Positions 44,924 to 62,967 of a stretch of 64,000 bases of DNA are shown one piece after another. The notes below the pieces were generated by a model, which was not told the origin of the DNA, did not search any database, and was given only the letters and a program-made list of their open reading frames with translations. The stretch covers positions 121-64,120 of the forward strand of contig VGVX01000006.1 in NCBI GenBank assembly GCA_016873845.1. Reading direction: 5' to 3'. Each line of letters begins with the position of its first letter. The stretch's first letter is position 1. This DNA comes from Ignavibacteria bacterium (GTDB taxonomy: Bacteria > Bacteroidota > Ignavibacteria > Ch128b). The position numbers and the translations under genes were made by a program.

Positions 44924-45904
44924 GTGAAAGTCTCAGTCGATACAAAATTTAGTACGGTAATCGAAAAAAATACTTTCTATTTCTACAACGTAAAGTTTCA
45001 AGAGAAGTATGAAAGCCATATTAACTCTTTAACAGAATCACTTCTATTTCTTAGGAATGAAATTGAAACGAAGGGTTTAAGAAAAGAGTTATTTGATTCT
45101 CTTCTATTAAATCGCGAGAATGGTTTGCGAGCATTATTAGCACTAACAGGCTTTTCAAATGAAAATCTAAAACGTCTCATTACTGTCATTAGGGTTACTC
45201 ATGATAAAATTTTATCTAATCTAATGAACAAGGATAAATGGTGCTCAAATGAAGAAGAAGTAGAAATATCAGAGTGGGGTGATGCAAAAATCTTGAATCT
45301 CATTAATGAAAATGAACATTTTCGAAAAGGACTGGTTAATTTATTCTTTGAAGGATCGACGGTGCCATTCTTAATTAATACATTGCCATTATTCGAACTG
45401 AAGAAATTAAGTATTTCAAAATTAAAGTTCGAAGTTCCTGCAATTATTGACACGTTAGTTAGATACAAAGAGAAAGGTTCATATTCAGGTAAGAGTGGTA
45501 ACAATCCTGAATTCTTGATTCAGCAATTGATAGAAGACTCACAAGTCCCCTTTGAAAAAGGTGATCTTGCAGAACTTCTTAGAAAAGAAAAAGTGGTAAA
45601 AAGAACGATGGATTTTATACTACCGAATAAGACAAAACCAAAGCTAATAATTGAATGTTCGTTTTTGGTGACTACTTCCTCTGGACAGGGCGATAAATCA
45701 AAAACTGAAACTAACATCAATAAACTAATTAAAAAGTATTATCCAAAAGCAAAGTTCATTGGATTTGTTGATGGGATTGGGTGGTATGTTCGAAAAGGGG
45801 ATTTGATGAGAATGGTTTCCGCATATGATGATGTTTTCACTTTTCATAAGTCAGAGCTAAAAAGATTTGACTACTACCTTAGGAAAGAATTCAAAAGGAT
45901 ATGA
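44924..45904 (+). CDS. Putative type II restriction endonuclease
   Basis: 326-aa ORF (GTG start) with a 4-nt ATGA overlap onto the methyltransferase. The C-terminal MDFILP...KLIIECSF...DGIGWY looks like a PD-(D/E)xK-type core. It loosely reminds me of DpnII-family enzymes (unverified). Confidence 0.5.
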   Translation: MKVSVDTKFSTVIEKNTFYFYNVKFQEKYESHINSLTESLLFLRNEIETKGLRKELFDSLLLNRENGLRALLALTGFSNENLKRLITVIRVTHDKILSNLMNKDKWCSNEEEVEISEWGDAKILNLINENEHFRKGLVNLFFEGSTVPFLINTLPLFELKKLSISKLKFEVPAIIDTLVRYKEKGSYSGKSGNNPEFLIQQLIEDSQVPFEKGDLAELLRKEKVVKRTMDFILPNKTKPKLIIECSFLVTTSSGQGDKSKTETNINKLIKKYYPKAKFIGFVDGIGWYVRKGDLMRMVSAYDDVFTFHKSELKRFDYYLRKEFKRI

Positions 45905-46884
45905 TAGAACAATTTGTTGATAGAATTATTCAGGGCGATTGCTTGGAATTAATTAAAGAGATTCCAGATAATACTTTCGATTTGACTTTTGCTGATCCGC
46001 CTTTTAACCTGAAGAAAGATTATAACAACTACAAGGACAGCTTGAAGTTTCACGAATATCTCGAGTGGTGTGAAAGATGGATCGGCGAGATGGTCAGAGT
46101 TACCAAGCCGACAGGTTCAATTATGCTTCATAACATTCCTAAATGGCTTACTTACTTTGCGACATTTCTTAATAAGAAAGCTGACTTCAAACACTGGGTT
46201 TCTTGGGACGCTCCGACTGCACCTATGGGTAAAACATTACAACCAAATCATTATGGTATTCTCTTTTATGCAAAGAACTCGTCTCTTTTAAAGTTTTATG
46301 AAATAAGATGCCCGCATAAAAGAGATAGAAAAACAAATTATTTATCAAAAGATTATGGCGGGAAAAAATCGGGTTTGCACCCATTCGGACCTTTAGTATC
46401 AGATGTATGGGTTGATATTCATAGAATAAAACATAATAAATATAGAGACGAACATCCGTGTCAACTACCAGTGCATTTACTTGAGAGGATTCTATTGATG
46501 ACAACAGATGAATCCGATCTTGTACTTGATCCTTTTAGCGGAACTGGGACTACAGCGATTGCAGCAAAACGACTTGGAAGAAAGTTTATTGGTTTCGAGA
46601 TAGACGAATATTACGTTGAGATTACTCAGAAGAAACTAAAGCAAGAAGAAGCTAATTCAAAACTTGGTAATAGATGGGTTAGTTTTTACCTTGATGAAGT
46701 AATTACTCTGCGAAATATAGATTGGGATTACTTAAAAGAGTATTTTTTAATACCATCAAAACCTGAAGAGATTGATCATACTCCAATTCAACTGAAATCA
46801 AAAATTAAGATGCCCCCACCACTTAAAGTACAAAAAGAGAAAACATTACAGCAGGAATCATTAAGGTTTGTTAAAGCCGTTTAG
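45901..46884 (+). CDS. DNA methyltransferase, N4/N6 type (beta-class permutation)
   Basis: 327-aa ORF. Catalytic motif IV FADPPFN lies near the N-terminus. SAM motif I LDPFSGTGTT lies near the C-terminus. Confidence 0.85.
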   Translation: MIEQFVDRIIQGDCLELIKEIPDNTFDLTFADPPFNLKKDYNNYKDSLKFHEYLEWCERWIGEMVRVTKPTGSIMLHNIPKWLTYFATFLNKKADFKHWVSWDAPTAPMGKTLQPNHYGILFYAKNSSLLKFYEIRCPHKRDRKTNYLSKDYGGKKSGLHPFGPLVSDVWVDIHRIKHNKYRDEHPCQLPVHLLERILLMTTDESDLVLDPFSGTGTTAIAAKRLGRKFIGFEIDEYYVEITQKKLKQEEANSKLGNRWVSFYLDEVITLRNIDWDYLKEYFLIPSKPEEIDHTPIQLKSKIKMPPPLKVQKEKTLQQESLRFVKAV

Positions 46885-58482: not shown

Positions 58483-60588
58483 ATGATAATCTTCGAAATT
58501 GAAAAGTCCAGACAAGAATTAATTAGAAAGCTGCAATTAGCCAGCTTCCCAAGACAAGTACTTTTTATTCTAAAAGATTTTTTTGATCAATTAATGCATT
58601 CTGATTATTCGTTAAATGAATCTTATTTTCTTGAATTTATTGAAAAATATCTTGAATGCTTAAAGAACTATGAGCCGTTTTATATTCATCCAAAGTACAC
58701 CAAGGAAATATTATTACAAGCTAATACACTTAAGAATATTTCAGTCCTTTCAAATTTTAAAGTTGAGTTAATTCAATCATCAATAAATTTAGAACGAAAG
58801 CTTTCAAAACTAAAAGACATTTTAGAAAGCAAAATACAAGAGACTGAACGTGCAGTACTTTTTCCAGTCCTTGAAACTCATGATGGACAAATAAAAACAG
58901 TTTCCCTTGGACTTTTGGAAAGTCTAACAATTAAAATTCAGGCAGCTAAAAGGGAAAATAAATTCATAGTAGTTCCAAGCGCAATGGAAATTGAAGAAAG
59001 GATTTCCAATCAAATAAATATCTCATGGAACTTAGCTCTAAAATTCATAAAAAAATATTTGAGAAAAGTAAATCCCTATCATGAAGTAATCATACAGTTC
59101 GATAAACGTTTTGGATTTTACATTGGAGAATCTCTTGGAATAGCATTAACAATAGGTTTTATAGAACAACTACTTTACTTCTACAATTCTACTTCCATCA
59201 TAAATATAAGAGATAACATCTCAGTTACCGGCGGAATCGATAAGGATGGAAAAGTTAAGAAAATCTCCACTGAAATAATAAAACAGAAGGTCGAAACGGT
59301 ATTCTTTTCTCCAACTCAGATATTTGTTGTGCCGATAGAGGGGGAACTTGAGGCTAAGGTTAAGGTTGAGGAATTCAATAAAGAATATCCTAACAAAAAA
59401 TTAGAAATTATCGGCGTTGAAAACTTAAACGATATTTTTAACAGAAGAAATTTAATTGATATTAGAAAACAAAATCCAATTGTACGAACAACAAAAGGCA
59501 TCCGAAAACATTGGCTCGGAAGTATTGCGTTGTCACTTCTACTTTTATTGGTTGGATTTCTTTTGTTTTATAATCTTGATGATAATCCAACTTTTGTCTA
59601 CAGAGATGAAAGAAATGTTTACGTCAAAAATAAGTTTGGTAAAATATTATGGACAAAAATCTCAGGAACAACAAATCCAATAACCAAACCAATTCAACAA
59701 AATACCGTTAATCTTATAATTGATATTGAGAATGATGGCGTTAATGAAGTATTAATTACGGCAGAGAGACTATCAGAAAGAGAAAATATCATGGAACATG
59801 GAATACTCAAATGTTATAACTTTGATGGTTCAATAAAATGGATTTATACTTTTAATGATTCAGTTAAAACAAAACGCGAAATTTTTACTGAGGATTGGAA
59901 TAGTCCCATAATGCTTAGTATTGTAAACATAAATGGGAAAAAAACACTTATTTGTTCAATAGCAAATTATCCGTCTTTTGCAGATGCGATTTTTAAAATT
60001 GACTTACTAACTGTTAAGAGAACACCCGGAACTCTTTGGCATCCTGGACATATTGGCGCGGGTTTTGTAAAAGATTTAAATAATGATGGTAAACAAGTGC
60101 TTATTGCTGTAGGATGTAACAATAGTTTCAATCATGTCGGATCGATTTTTGTTCTACCAGTTGACAGCATCAATGGTTATTCTCCGTCAACTGATGAATA
60201 TAGATTTTATGAATTTCCTAAAGCCAATTTTCAAGCTTACATATCTATCCCACAAACAGATTATTGTAAATACTTAGGAGTACGAAATAGTTGGATTATT
60301 GGTAGGTCATTCGCCGACAGAAAAGATATTAATAAAATATTTTTCGGAAGCGGTGAGTACACAATTGAAGATATGAATAAAATCGGTATTCAATATTATC
60401 TTGATTACAACCTAAAAGATTTTGACATTACTCCAACTTCATCCTTCGCTTGGGATAGAGATAAATTAGTAATAGAGAAAAAACTTTCTCCACCACTCAC
60501 CGACACAGAGGAATTTCGTGAACTAATAAAAAGTCAAATTAAATACTGGAACGGAAAAGATTTTGTAAAAAGGGAAGACTTGAAGTAA
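58483..60588 (+). CDS. Membrane protein with a cytoplasmic Lon-like (S16) protease domain, one TM helix and an extracytoplasmic FG-GAP/beta-propeller-like domain
   Basis: 701-aa ORF. GESLGIALTIGF (Ser217) and VTGGIDKDGKVKKISTEIIKQK parallel the Lon catalytic Ser and Lys motifs (PSAG...TGEI..G.V..IGG.KEK). No Walker motifs. The TM helix is WLGSIALSLLLLLVGFLLFYNL (about aa 344-365). C-terminal DIENDGVNEVLI and DLNNDGKQVLIAV are FG-GAP-like loops. Confidence 0.6.
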   Translation: MIIFEIEKSRQELIRKLQLASFPRQVLFILKDFFDQLMHSDYSLNESYFLEFIEKYLECLKNYEPFYIHPKYTKEILLQANTLKNISVLSNFKVELIQSSINLERKLSKLKDILESKIQETERAVLFPVLETHDGQIKTVSLGLLESLTIKIQAAKRENKFIVVPSAMEIEERISNQINISWNLALKFIKKYLRKVNPYHEVIIQFDKRFGFYIGESLGIALTIGFIEQLLYFYNSTSIINIRDNISVTGGIDKDGKVKKISTEIIKQKVETVFFSPTQIFVVPIEGELEAKVKVEEFNKEYPNKKLEIIGVENLNDIFNRRNLIDIRKQNPIVRTTKGIRKHWLGSIALSLLLLLVGFLLFYNLDDNPTFVYRDERNVYVKNKFGKILWTKISGTTNPITKPIQQNTVNLIIDIENDGVNEVLITAERLSERENIMEHGILKCYNFDGSIKWIYTFNDSVKTKREIFTEDWNSPIMLSIVNINGKKTLICSIANYPSFADAIFKIDLLTVKRTPGTLWHPGHIGAGFVKDLNNDGKQVLIAVGCNNSFNHVGSIFVLPVDSINGYSPSTDEYRFYEFPKANFQAYISIPQTDYCKYLGVRNSWIIGRSFADRKDINKIFFGSGEYTIEDMNKIGIQYYLDYNLKDFDITPTSSFAWDRDKLVIEKKLSPPLTDTEEFRELIKSQIKYWNGKDFVKREDLK

Positions 60589-60598
60589 ATACTTTATT

Positions 60599-60696
60599 GG
60601 TTCTCTCGATACAATAAAACTGATGCTTTATTTACTCGAGAACCTTCGCTCGTCGCGGTGTTCGAGTAACGAGCGAAGCGAGTGTATCGAGAACAC
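60599..60696 (+). repeat. Structured repeat E1 (short 3' module)
   Basis: GGTTCTCTCGATAC-H1-TACTCGAGAACC-TTCGCTCGTCGC-GGTGTTCGAGTA-ACGAGCGAAGCGAGT-GTATCGAGAACAC. Starts 10 nt after the stop of the 701-aa gene. Confidence 0.9.
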
Positions 60697-60728
60697 GAAT
60701 TGAATTGTTTTGAGATTAACTTTCTCTT

Positions 60729-60849
60729 GGTTCTCTCGATACAATAAAGCTGACGCTTTATTTACTCGAGAACCATCTCTAGTTGCGGTGTTCGATTAGT
60801 TCCAATCTTGCCTAACTTGAGACAAGTTATCGGAACGTATCGAGAACAG
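60729..60849 (+). repeat. Structured repeat E2 (long 3' module)
   Basis: Same four boxes, with a 38-nt hairpin module GTTCCAATCTTGCCTAACTTGAGACAAGTTATCGGAAC. Lies 32 nt after E1. Confidence 0.9.
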
Positions 60850-60889
60850 TTGTGTGGTTATCAAATTATCTTAAATTTTCCAGACTTAA

Positions 60890-61153
60890 TTACTTTTCCA
60901 TCCAGCTTGGCAAAGGCTCTCCGGTTGCAGAACAATAAATCGTTTCGGGAGAAATATCAATATCATCCGGCCAAGTCAGCACGCCATTATTGATGTAAAG
61001 CTTTTCAAAAAAAGAATAATCAAGTAACTTTTCAAAAATTGTATTCTGTAAAATGTATTTCTTTAAATCCACGACACCCGTTTTGCCATTTTTGAAAACA
61101 AGTTCAACAACGTAGTTTCCAAGCAATCTAAAATTTGTTATTTCGTAATACAT
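60890..61153 (-). CDS. DUF2442 domain protein (orphan, no DUF4160 partner)
   Basis: 87-aa ORF. ...GVLTWPDDIDISPETIY is the characteristic DUF2442 C-terminal motif. Confidence 0.8.
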   Translation of the reverse strand: MYYEITNFRLLGNYVVELVFKNGKTGVVDLKKYILQNTIFEKLLDYSFFEKLYINNGVLTWPDDIDISPETIYCSATGEPLPSWMEK

Positions 61154-61254
61154 TTTTATTTCAAGGGTTTAAGTTGCAAAGGAAGTGAATGAATTGAGAT
61201 TGCTGAGGGAAGAAATAAGATTTAGAGCGAATCACAAAAGATTATAAATTAATT

Positions 61255-61539
61255 CTAATAAACTTCATCGTGTGTACCAATTGTTATTAATATTATTTTC
61301 CCGTCTTTAGATTCCTGTAATCCATCAAAATAAAAAACTATTCTGCAATCATAACCACAACTGCATGCAAGGGACCCGAATAATTCACCAGATAACTTAT
61401 GTGTCTGAAGTTTGGGGTCATAAATATTCGCTTCTAATAATCTTATGCTTTCATCAATTTTAATTTTAAGAAATGGAAATCTTTTAACAAATTTCTTATA
61501 AGCTTTTTTAAAAGAGGGAGTTAGTATTATTTTATTCAT
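61255..61539 (-). CDS. RelE/YafQ-family type II toxin (mRNA interferase)
   Basis: 94-aa ORF. HKLSGELFGSLACSCGYDCRIVF...ILITIGTHDEVY pattern is typical of the RelE/StbE/YafQ family. 4-nt overlap with the upstream small ORF. Confidence 0.85.
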   Translation of the reverse strand: MNKIILTPSFKKAYKKFVKRFPFLKIKIDESIRLLEANIYDPKLQTHKLSGELFGSLACSCGYDCRIVFYFDGLQESKDGKIILITIGTHDEVY

Positions 61540-61775
61540 TCTTTAACATCTAATAATGAATTGTGGAGTTCGTTAATGGAGTCGTTTGCATTCATCTCTT
61601 TTAATTTTCCAGAATGATACAGTGCTTTTGCTTCACTGACTTCTGCCACAATTTCTTCTCTTCTTTCGGCAATAATCCTTTTGTTGAGTATTTCAATTAA
61701 AGTCTTTCTTTCTTCAAATGATAGACTCATAATTGTATCTAAAGTTTGATCTAAAGTATTCATTTTTATTCTCAA
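61536..61775 (-). CDS. Putative antitoxin of the RelE-family toxin
   Basis: 79-aa helical ORF immediately upstream of, and overlapping, the toxin gene. Assigned by position. Confidence 0.6.
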   Translation of the reverse strand: MRIKMNTLDQTLDTIMSLSFEERKTLIEILNKRIIAERREEIVAEVSEAKALYHSGKLKEMNANDSINELHNSLLDVKE

Positions 61776-61833
61776 AGTTTTGTCTTTTTAAAAATATAAA
61801 AGAATTTATAAAACGAAAAGGTAATTAGCTACT

Positions 61834-61954
61834 GGTTCTCTCGATACAATAAAGCTGACGCTTTATTTACTCGAGAACCATCTCTAGTTGCGGTGTTCGA
61901 GTAGTTCCGATCTTGCCTAACTTGAGACAAGTTATCGGAACGTATCGAGAACAC
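61834..61954 (+). repeat. Structured repeat E3 (long 3' module)
   Basis: Differs from E2 at only three positions. Confidence 0.9.
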
Positions 61955-61989
61955 AAAGATTGATATATTTAATTTGAGATTTTTCTTTT

Positions 61990-62077
61990 GGTTCTCTCGA
62001 TACAATAAAGCTGACGCTTTATTTACTCGAGAACCATCTCTAGTTGCGGTGTTCGAGTAACGAACAAAGCGAGAACA
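61990..62077 (+). repeat. Structured repeat E4 (5' part as E2/E3; short 3' module variant lacking the last box)
   Basis: ...GGTGTTCGAGTAACGAACAAAGCGAGAACA. Lacks TGTATCGAG relative to E1/E5. Lies 35 nt after E3. Confidence 0.85.
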
Positions 62078-62196
62078 TTAGGAATCAAATATTGTAAAAC
62101 CTCAACAAAGCAGCTTTAAACATATTCGCCTTGAATAATAATCAAACATGATTTGATTTTTGATTTACTTGTAATTATTTTAAAATAAAAAACTAT

Positions 62197-62460
62197 ATGC
62201 CAGAAATTTGCCGATTTTATGGAATAATCATTAAAATGTATTTTAATGATCATCAGCCACCACATTTTCATGCTGAATATGGAAAACATAAAATTGAAGT
62301 AACAATTGAAACACTTGAAGTTAGAAATTTTGGAAAATTTCCTAAAAGAGCCCTTTCCATGGTGCTTTAATGGGCAAATACACACAGAACAGAGTTGCTA
62401 AAAGATTGGAATCTAGCCAGAATTGGTAAAGAATTAATCAAAATTAAACCATTAGATTAA
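62197..62460 (+). pseudogene. DUF4160 domain gene interrupted by an in-frame TAA (62368-62370)
   Basis: MPEICRFYGIIIKMYFNDHQPPHFHAEYG... is a canonical DUF4160 N-terminus. After the TAA the same frame continues WANTHRTELLKDWNLARIGKELIKIKPLD, the expected C-terminus. It ends 1 nt before the DUF2442 start. Confidence 0.75.
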
Positions 62461-62461
62461 T

Positions 62462-62704
62462 ATGATTAAAGTAAAAAACGTGACGCCTCTTTCGGAGAAA
62501 AAAATTTATATATTATTTTCAGATGGCACAGAAAAGATAATTGATATAAAACCATTTATTAAAAGAAATAACATTTCATCAAAACTTATGAATGATAATT
62601 ATTTTAGAAAGGTGTTTGTTGAAGATGGTGGTGGAATCGCATGGCCAAATGGTTTTGATTTTTGTCCAGTTTATTTATACGAGAATGAATTCAACTTAAA
62701 ATGA
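62462..62704 (+). CDS. DUF2442 domain protein
   Basis: 80-aa ORF. ...GGGIAWPNGFDFCPVYLY motif. Paired with the DUF4160 gene. Confidence 0.8.
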   Translation: MIKVKNVTPLSEKKIYILFSDGTEKIIDIKPFIKRNNISSKLMNDNYFRKVFVEDGGGIAWPNGFDFCPVYLYENEFNLK

Positions 62705-62731
62705 ATTGATATTTTGAGATTATCTTTGCCT

Positions 62732-62820
62732 TGTTCTCTCGATACAAAAATCTAAAGATTTTTTACTCGAGAACCGCTGCGGTGTTCGAGTAACGAGCGA
62801 AGCGAGTGTATCGAGAACAC
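62732..62820 (+). repeat. Structured repeat E5 (variant H1 hairpin, 5-nt loop, short 3' module)
   Basis: TGTTCTCTCGATAC-AAAAATCTAAAGATTTTT-TACTCGAGAACC-GCTGC-GGTGTTCGAGTA-ACGAGCGAAGCGAGT-GTATCGAGAACAC. Confidence 0.9.
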
Positions 62821-62830
62821 AAGGCTGAAA

Positions 62831-62856
62831 TAAAAAAGCCGCCAATTAGGCGGCTT
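62831..62856 (-). terminator. Rho-independent terminator of the 62968-63894 gene
   Basis: On the minus strand, AAGCCGCC-TAATT-GGCGGCTT is followed by TTTTTTATTT. Confidence 0.75.
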
Positions 62857-62967
62857 ACTAACTAAACATTAGGTTTACTCATTATATAGGGATTGCGCTT
62901 CTGTGGAAGAAAGGACTTGATTGTAAATACGCACCATCGTCTAAAGAATCGTAATTTGTTTAATTTT

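Follow-up and report, generated by a model that had tools for sequence, protein, structure and literature searches.

Repetitive extragenic palindromes (REPs) that carry a GTAG tag are known to form tail-to-tail dimers whose spacers have complementary ends, heterodimers, and tandem clusters that include flanking DNA, and they lie between co-directional and convergent genes (Di Nocera et al., 2013, PMC3733652). GTAG REPs and REPINs share further features, including a location downstream of genes and a very uneven copy number (Nunvar et al., 2010, PMC2817692; Bertels and Rainey, 2011, PMC3116915; Di Nocera et al., 2013, PMC3733652). The 2013 survey reported no GTAG REPs from Bacteroidetes or Chlorobi (PMC3733652). 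Here we analyze a 64,000-nt stretch (hereafter "the window") of contig VGVX01000006.1, ordinary chromosome of an Ignavibacteria-like organism of the FCB group from Lake Tanganyika metagenomes. Near its end lie five copies (E1 to E5) of a nested inverted-repeat element of 88 to 121 nt. An earlier note on this DNA had offered three candidate roles for the element: recombination sites of a non-canonical cassette system, a new family of structured non-coding RNA (ncRNA), or a local element resembling bacterial interspersed mosaic elements (BIMEs). The last of these is the one that we favor, based on dispersal, fold, and modularity. On balance, we consider it likely that the five elements belong to a family of palindromic repeats of the REP/REPIN/BIME kind, which is non-coding and dispersed.

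The five copies were recovered on the + strand by alignment, by exact box matches, and as repeat families D1 and D2, at the coordinates that the earlier note had given (Table 1). A covariance model (R1), built from 15 family members and run over the whole window with filters off, scored the copies at 60.6 to 91.3 bits (E 1e-12 to 1e-19) and the opposite strand at the same loci at 26 to 52 bits. The next-best match reached 13.8 bits (E 0.4), so the earlier observation that the other ~58 kb holds no copy was correct. As only five loci stand above noise at such E values, chance is excluded. The parts of the element follow a fixed order: box1 GGTTCTCTCGATAC, hairpin H1, box2 TACTCGAGAACC, a loop of 5 or 12 nt, box3 GGTGTTCGAGTA, either a 15-nt module or a 38-nt hairpin (H3), and box4 GTATCGAGAACAC. 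The four boxes, of ~12 nt each, alternate in orientation, and their sequences, the two loop lengths, and the two module types all agree with the earlier description. Four boxes are present in E1, E2, E3, and E5, but not in E4, in which a deletion of 9 nt (TGTATCGAG, between two CGAG repeats) removed box4. Further departures from the plan are a mutated box3 (TTCGATT) and a weakened H3 in E2, and an outer stem lengthened by CCTTG/CAAGG in E5 (62729-62824). The reverse complement of every full element fits the same four-box plan and matches the same model at a lower score. The element is thus pseudo-palindromic, and its orientation rests on a few asymmetric bases. All copies do lie on the same strand, as had been emphasized previously, but this is weak evidence given the pseudo-palindromic plan and the fact that tandem copies are duplicates.

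Predicted single-strand folds of the copies were far more stable than those of shuffled sequences (z -3.9 to -7.3), with the E3 cloverleaf at a minimum free energy (MFE) of -29.2 kcal/mol (z -7.3). Both folds that had been proposed for the element occur: E1, E3, and E5 adopt a four-way junction on both strands, and E2 and E4 adopt the two-hairpin alternative. RNAalifold chose the four-way junction (box1:box4, H1, box2:box3), which was also the MFE fold of 11 out of 11 copies when 32-nt flanks were included; in 8 of these 11, the outer stem gained 7 to 20 pairs between flanks of unrelated sequence. In this fold of either strand, both variable hairpins point away from the junction, and the conserved stems, box1:box4 and box2:box3, lie directly next to it. 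For the core, the alternative pairing (box1:box2, box3:box4) comes close to this fold, since every box is a version of a single half-site; the extensions alone favor the cloverleaf. Across 39 matches aligned to the model, 91.4% of cells were paired, as compared to 35 to 50% with partners slid, and covariation was concentrated in H1 (14 to 18 double changes per pair), figures that lean towards structure in that the alignment was fitted to the model and holds both strands. The core pairs are invariant and therefore neutral on pairing. Signals of strand cancel out: one strand shows G.T in P3 and C.A in P1, the other strand shows the converse, and the H1 of E1, with an A.C mismatch on the + strand that becomes G.T on the - strand, pairs better on the - strand.

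Having established the plan of the element, we turn to its occurrence in other genomes. A nucleotide profile (nhmmer) of the five copies gave only 8 matches, as the hairpins differ, and was replaced by box patterns and the covariance model. Scanning one genome per species from 185,579 species with the pattern TCTCTCGATAC-N10-35-TACTCGAGAAC, which requires an exact core, yielded 40 loci in ~10 genomes. More than half of these (25 of 40, on ~15 contigs) belong to the metagenome-assembled genome (MAG) H5_UNCL2, which comprises 4.98 Mb with 65% G+C and 0% contamination and received no phylum from GTDB-Tk (PMC7648391 supplement). In the 192 kb sampled around its matches, H5_UNCL2 contains 32 box clusters, seven of them without an exact seed, and its arrays reach up to 2 kb, with box2 and box3 units multiplied. 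A single Ignavibacteriae MAG carries five loci on five contigs, and both in this MAG and in H5_UNCL2 the copies are dispersed between genes, often as inverted dimers and in clusters. Further exact-core loci lie in MAGs of Melioribacteraceae, Ignavibacteriales, and "Bacteroidetes." Single contigs binned as Leptospira and as Schleiferiaceae also match, although binning errors are possible for both, and a diverged version was met by chance in another Ignavibacteriae genome (L062). The order of the four boxes is the same whether a genome is AT-rich or GC-rich, and the boxes are identical across genomes, while hairpins, loops, and flanks track the local base composition. Literature searches on Ignavibacteria repeats gave no description of the family, and searching by sequence returned primer matches only.

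The copies lie mostly between co-directional or convergent genes, and those genes are ordinary ones. Flanking open reading frames (ORFs) at all loci, 86 in number, matched 114 Pfam families, of which only generic ones recur; the matches include glutamate synthase, AspRS, AcrB, BacA, MiaA, and OTCase. Ten flanking proteins at Ignavibacteria loci were BacA, LPG synthase, a ZIP transporter, SNase, proteins with type IX secretion (T9SS) tails, and similar. In the same 86 ORFs, no transposase or integrase recurs beside the elements by Pfam, and ORF clustering over all loci revealed no paralogous gene family that travels with them. A few copies adjoin small selfish genes, namely BrnT/CopG (L044), DUF3368 (L051), and GIY-YIG (L012). 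The earlier note had regarded the element as specific to its locus and had named scatter through ordinary intergenic regions as the pattern that would speak against this. At the level of the family, this is the pattern we found, as the core is dispersed among ordinary genes elsewhere.

One array deserves separate mention. Positions 600-2600 of L018 (H5_UNCL2, JABTUV010000014.1) form a 2-kb non-coding block composed solely of tandem, expanded elements, in which a repeat of box1-H1, three box2 units, four to five box3 units, and H3-box4 occurs ~5 times with a 40-nt linker. Matches from other sources appear to be of a different nature. Plasmid, phage, and viral collections gave no match except for a marine phage-like contig, where the pattern lies within an ORF and has no hairpin. 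Contigs from marine/TARA data and IMG/VR (L049, L050, L054, L055, L059, and L071) are probably chance or coding matches: the pattern lies inside a conserved ORF of 137 to 147 aa, and the segment between the boxes forms no hairpin. L071 is the same contig as L055, taken from a viral collection, and one further viral contig (L072) carries the pattern.

Comparison of copies also reveals how the element is built. Its unit is a replaceable hairpin between conserved flanks, which on one strand reads CTCGA-GTA(G)-hairpin-GTATCGAG, and the full element consists of two such units inverted tail-to-tail and joined by a short spacer with complementary ends. We found 41 distinct H1 segments, of which 38 are non-coding and ~30 of these are clear hairpins. 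Most Ignavibacteria copies have a strong hairpin as H3; the 15-nt module is not one. The 5' side of the hairpin carries GTAG in 52 of 85 units (61%) and GTAN in 66 of 85 (78%). Copies in the window mostly have GTAA (the H1 units, and H3 of E1 and E5), with GTAG only in the H3 of E2 and E3. Between the orthologous loci L007 and L035, H3 has been replaced and a 37-nt palindrome has been inserted inside box3. This same palindrome, of the CCTGCCCGCC type, and one of the CCGTCAGCTGACGG type recur independently in these genomes, which indicates that the hairpins belong to separate families of small palindromes nesting into one another.

Two of these small palindromes were observed in additional contexts. 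The second family, GCCTGCCCGCC...GGCGGGCAGGC, lies inside box3 of one element, and another copy lies apparently in frame within the gene of a REP-associated tyrosine transposase (RAYT); the third family, CCGTCAGCTGACGG, recurs in both hairpins and flanks. Such observations suggest nested mini-palindromes in Ignavibacteria genomes (sites in Table 1). Separately, the 15-nt module ACGAGCGAAGCGAGT (60669-60683 in E1, 62793-62807 in E5) contains GCGAAGC, a heptamer that forms an unusually stable DNA mini-hairpin. Its presence hints slightly that the fold matters in its DNA form.

Strain variation at the locus bears on how the cluster arose. Among eight strain contigs (L001 to L006, L056, and the window), gene content is identical and differences lie in the number of elements and in the hairpin modules. 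L002 has one additional unit of E3 plus spacer (156 nt), E1 bears an E5-type H1 hairpin in L002, L003, L005, and L006, and the array of L056 comprises three elements, the first of them an E5/E1 chimera. These differences indicate that the locus evolves through unequal crossing-over and gene conversion between copies. They also modify an earlier argument, namely that H1 keeps its pairing while changing its sequence. Pairing is indeed retained, but as the E5-type H1 is found in the E1 of other strains, the difference within the window is a module replacement and not point covariation. The spacers S1 and S2 (32 to 35 nt) and the segment S3, the 33 nt upstream of E5, are homologous (79% mean column identity, common core TTTGAGATT), so the duplicated unit is "spacer plus element."

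Table 1. Coordinates of the elements, their parts, the associated spacers, and nested palindromes (window positions unless a locus is named).
Feature	Position	Strand	Description
E1	60599..60696	+	Full: box1, H1, box2, 12-nt loop, box3, 15-nt GCGAAGC module, box4; 88.0 bits
S1	60697..60728	+	Spacer E1-E2; homologous to S2 and S3
E2	60729..60849	+	Full-length with 38-nt H3; 82.6 bits
E3	61834..61954	+	Best-preserved copy; 91.3 bits
E3 box1	61834-61847
E3 H1	61848-61867
E3 box2	61868-61879
E3 loop L2	61880-61891
E3 box3	61892-61903
E3 H3	61904-61941
E3 box4	61942-61954
S2	61955..61989	+	Spacer E3-E4; E3 and S2 form a 156-nt unit
E4	61990..62077	+	3'-degenerate, box4 lost; 60.6 bits
S3	62699..62731	+	5' extension of E5, homologous to S1/S2; overlaps the stop codon of the DUF2442 gene
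E5	62732..62820	+	Short form: alternative H1 hairpin, 5-nt loop, 15-nt module; 83.0 bits
Nested palindrome site	L035:4030-4070
Nested palindrome site	L043:4430-4475
Nested palindrome site	L044:1540-1660

We compared the family with described repeat classes. Like GTAG REPs and REPINs, the elements are short extragenic palindromes with GTAG or GTAN beside the hairpin in most units. They share the location of these repeats, form inverted tail-to-tail dimers, heterodimers, and tandem clusters with flanking DNA, and are patchily distributed: tens of copies, possibly a few hundred, in some genomes (extrapolated roughly from the 32 clusters of the 192 kb sampled), but few or no copies in relatives. 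Unlike them, the element has an outer inverted repeat, box1/box4, which closes the dimer into a four-way junction. Enterobacterial BIMEs are likewise mosaics of a short motif in alternating orientation, with a small set of interchangeable linker modules and arrays of variable length, but here the repeated motif is not itself a palindromic unit and the linkers are hairpins. MITEs (miniature transposable elements with inverted repeats) such as Correia/NEMIS also resemble the element in their size of 90 to 190 nt, terminal inverted repeats of 13 to ~30 nt, long versus short forms set apart by an internal module, and nested insertions of small palindromes; the small dispersed hairpin repeats of cyanobacteria provide a further MITE-like comparison. 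In contrast to MITEs, inspection by eye detected no consistent target-site duplication in the flanks of the element, and no parent insertion sequence with the same ends was found.

If the elements are palindromic repeats of this kind, they would fold into the four-way junction when single-stranded, or extrude as cruciforms. A trans-acting protein would then recognize both the GTA(G) beside the hairpins and the invariant stems next to the junction, and would copy and spread the elements or maintain them. Judging from its conservation, the junction-proximal sequence is probably the recognition site of such a protein. As most units bear the GTAG tag, a single-strand-specific transposase of RAYT or HUH type would be the most likely candidate. 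The hairpins would be freely exchanged or inserted modules, with small palindromes entering at the tips of hairpins or junctions. The cluster in the window probably formed by local tandem duplication of the spacer plus element and by gene conversion or homologous recombination between copies, which would give rise to tandem pairs and swapped modules. The cluster sits in a stretch of small toxin-antitoxin (TA) genes, and regions of this type provide intergenic spaces that are short and permissive. An effect on transcript ends is also conceivable.

Several observations weigh against the assignment to the REP/REPIN/BIME kind. A tblastn search with RAYT over 587 kb of fetched DNA revealed no RAYT flanked by this element; the two RAYT genes that it did reveal, in Ignavibacteria-type MAGs (L062:2240-3900 and L043:3990-4900), are flanked by other small REPs. 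Nor was a gene for any other enzyme found with this element on its flanks. We found no empty site and no target duplication that would attest to mobility. The element holds its flanks (CTCGA...TATCGAG) fixed and varies its stems, the reverse of classical REP families, and no stem sequence conserved within the family was found, as the stems of the 41 H1 segments are unrelated. The G of GTAG, the first base of the stem, is predicted to be paired; in classical REPs it is unpaired. The junction core is identical in genomes of 33% and 65% G+C from different phyla, a pattern that is unusual for REPs and hints that functional constraint is stronger here. Finally, from the window's own genome only this locus was recovered, in a collection that lacks some contigs. 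Given these points, we file the family as one that works like REP/REPIN/BIME repeats, in a new variant, and not as a proven member of the RAYT-mobilised class. As for the repeats that do accompany the two RAYT genes, those in L062 are of the GAACTACGGAGTAGTTC type and others, and those in L043 are hairpins of the ATCCCGAAGGGAT type.

Other explanations of the element were weighed against the same evidence. One follows the first candidate role in the earlier note: small TA modules would be moved by a non-canonical cassette system (integron-, pdif-, or res-like), and the copies, folded or as cruciforms, would be its recombination sites. Stacking box1:box4 on box2:box3 would recreate GGTTCTCTCGA-TACTAC-TCGAGAACC, with inverted arms around a 6-nt asymmetric center as in the core sites of tyrosine recombinases, and a hairpin-less variant, TCTCTCGATAAACTCGAGAAC, exists in L030. 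Similar to attC sites and clusters of attC sites lacking an integrase (CALINs), the copies in the window are same-orientation imperfect palindromes, within the 60 to 140 nt of such sites, beside small, often TA, genes, and a function as folded single strands has been proposed. Small TA or selfish genes also adjoin elements in L044, L051, and L012, and strain variation is concentrated at the elements. Yet the attC pair of R'' (RYYYAAC) and R' (GTTRRRY) at 35 to 135 nt spacing is absent from both strands of 60500-62900; the whole window has 11 such pairs, which amounts to 0.4 expected per 2.4 kb. On both strands the termini, GGTTCTC...GAGAACAC, have a 5' GTT and a 3' AAC, opposite to the attC polarity, in line with the earlier remark that the element does not fit a canonical attC. 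Sequence as well as structure is highly conserved, and the tandem pairs hold no cassette between them. No recombinase or integrase appeared in the Pfam hits of the 12 kb upstream or in 20 further mid-sized ORFs of the window (only part of the ORFs was scanned). At 64,484 bases, the longest contig with the toxin gene barely exceeds the window and leaves no further flank to inspect for a recombinase. Elsewhere the elements are dispersed among housekeeping genes, and in H5_UNCL2 pairs of them bracket PfkB, AcrB, AspRS, OTCase, and MiaA. The TA pair of L044 has an element on one side only, and the closest homologues of the window's YafQ-type toxin (67 to 71% identity, L064 to L070), each with an upstream ORF in the antitoxin position, have no boxes nearby, which removes the link between cassette and element. 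Together with the identical genes of all eight strain contigs, which vary in elements and not in genes, these results speak against the comparison with integron or CALIN cassettes; the recombination-site reading is largely refuted and, in our estimation, very improbable. Repeats of a type III TA antitoxin were also considered and are ruled out, as the family lies mostly away from toxin genes.

We likewise consider it unlikely that the copies are a structured ncRNA family, acting as a cis element of 3' or 5' untranslated regions or as a small RNA, with the four-way junction as a protein-binding or catalytic core. Consistent with an RNA are the invariant junction-proximal sequence, the variable but always paired peripheral helices, the tolerance of G.U at one P3 position (GU 16, GC 12), and the co-orientation of the window copies with the + strand genes that they follow or precede. 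However, both strands fold equally well and their wobble and mismatch asymmetries cancel, with P1 better on one strand, P3 on the other, and the H1 of E1 on the - strand. Elsewhere the orientation is not consistent (~6 to 8 antisense versus 2 to 3 sense in co-directional contexts), and the hairpin loops are not enriched in GNRA or UUCG. Multiplied box2/box3 units and 2-kb tandem blocks are unlike an RNA gene, and the GCGAAGC of the 15-nt module is a mini-hairpin of DNA type. In line with the earlier note, which had called the element unclassified, Rfam offers no counterpart: the window gave 0 matches at the gathering threshold, 60500-62900 gave only noise even at E<=10, and 16 related loci gave only a tRNA. 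Alternatively, the boxes could be immobile host-function sites bound by a conserved nucleoid, topology, or termination factor, much as IHF and gyrase bind BIMEs, and kept by selection instead of transposition. A core that stays identical while the rest has drifted to local composition, four copies of one half-site in alternating orientation, and a location between co-directional and convergent genes would all suit such sites. The patchy distribution (the exact core in ~10 of 185,579 species), copy numbers that differ hugely between genomes, and tandem amplification and nested insertions that look selfish all argue against them, as does the fact that we know of no candidate factor; this explanation, too, seems improbable. 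A further possibility centers on the invariant 16-bp junction core, CTCGATAC|TACTCGAG : CTCGAGTA|GTATCGAG, which has one replaceable hairpin per strand at its center. An undescribed structure-specific enzyme that acts on a fold like a Holliday junction, such as a recombinase, transposase, or nuclease, might have this core as its substrate. The element would then be more than a selfish variant of REPs, and the family would represent mobile or recombinogenic DNA of a new class or, alternatively, a new class of pseudo-symmetric RNA. We regard this as doubtful but worth stating.

The genes around the cluster are unexceptional. The window contains core genes such as RuvB, LpxA/C/D, UppS, sigma-54, MnmE, and GidB, plus one restriction-modification pair. 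This type II pair, set in core chromosome at 44924-46884 (+), comprises a gene for a DpnII/BanI-like restriction endonuclease and, after it, one for an N6/N4 DNA methyltransferase. The elements occupy three sites: after a gene for a 701-aa Lon_C-like protein (58483-60588, +); between a - strand block of DUF2442, YafQ/RelE toxin, and antitoxin and a + strand DUF4160/DUF2442 block; and after the latter block, directly before a canonical bidirectional terminator. A scan for promoters and terminators was uninformative, with 14 promoter-like sites observed and 10 expected. Homologues of the Lon-like protein showed at most 46% identity, no synteny, and no element downstream. Proteins of 600 to 720 aa with a weak Lon_C match and a membrane segment lie within a few kb of a YafQ/RelE-type TA pair at three loci, namely the one in the window, L064:6613-8751, and L068:2604-4397. 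L064 and L068 come from distant relatives whose proteins are 36 to 40% identical, and the orientation relative to the TA pair differs. The proximity may reflect a functional linkage, for example a protease that acts on the antitoxin, or a defence module. The DUF4160 gene (62197-62460, +) has one in-frame TAA at codon 58, readthrough of which would give 87 aa ending in a DUF4160 C-terminus of normal form; every strain contig shows the same 57-aa call. Either the gene is a pseudogene or the codon is a site of recoding.

Common as they are, REP-like repeats remain poorly charted outside Proteobacteria. With the family described here, GTAG-like palindromic repeats now reach Ignavibacteria and a bacterium without phylum assignment, in an unusual design of fixed flanks, swappable hairpins, and a four-way junction. 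From sequence comparison, the conservation of its core across very different genomes points to a specific protein partner. Elements of this type fragment metagenome assemblies, may be misread as cassette arrays or as new RNA genes, and create structural variation at the strain level, as they have done at this locus.

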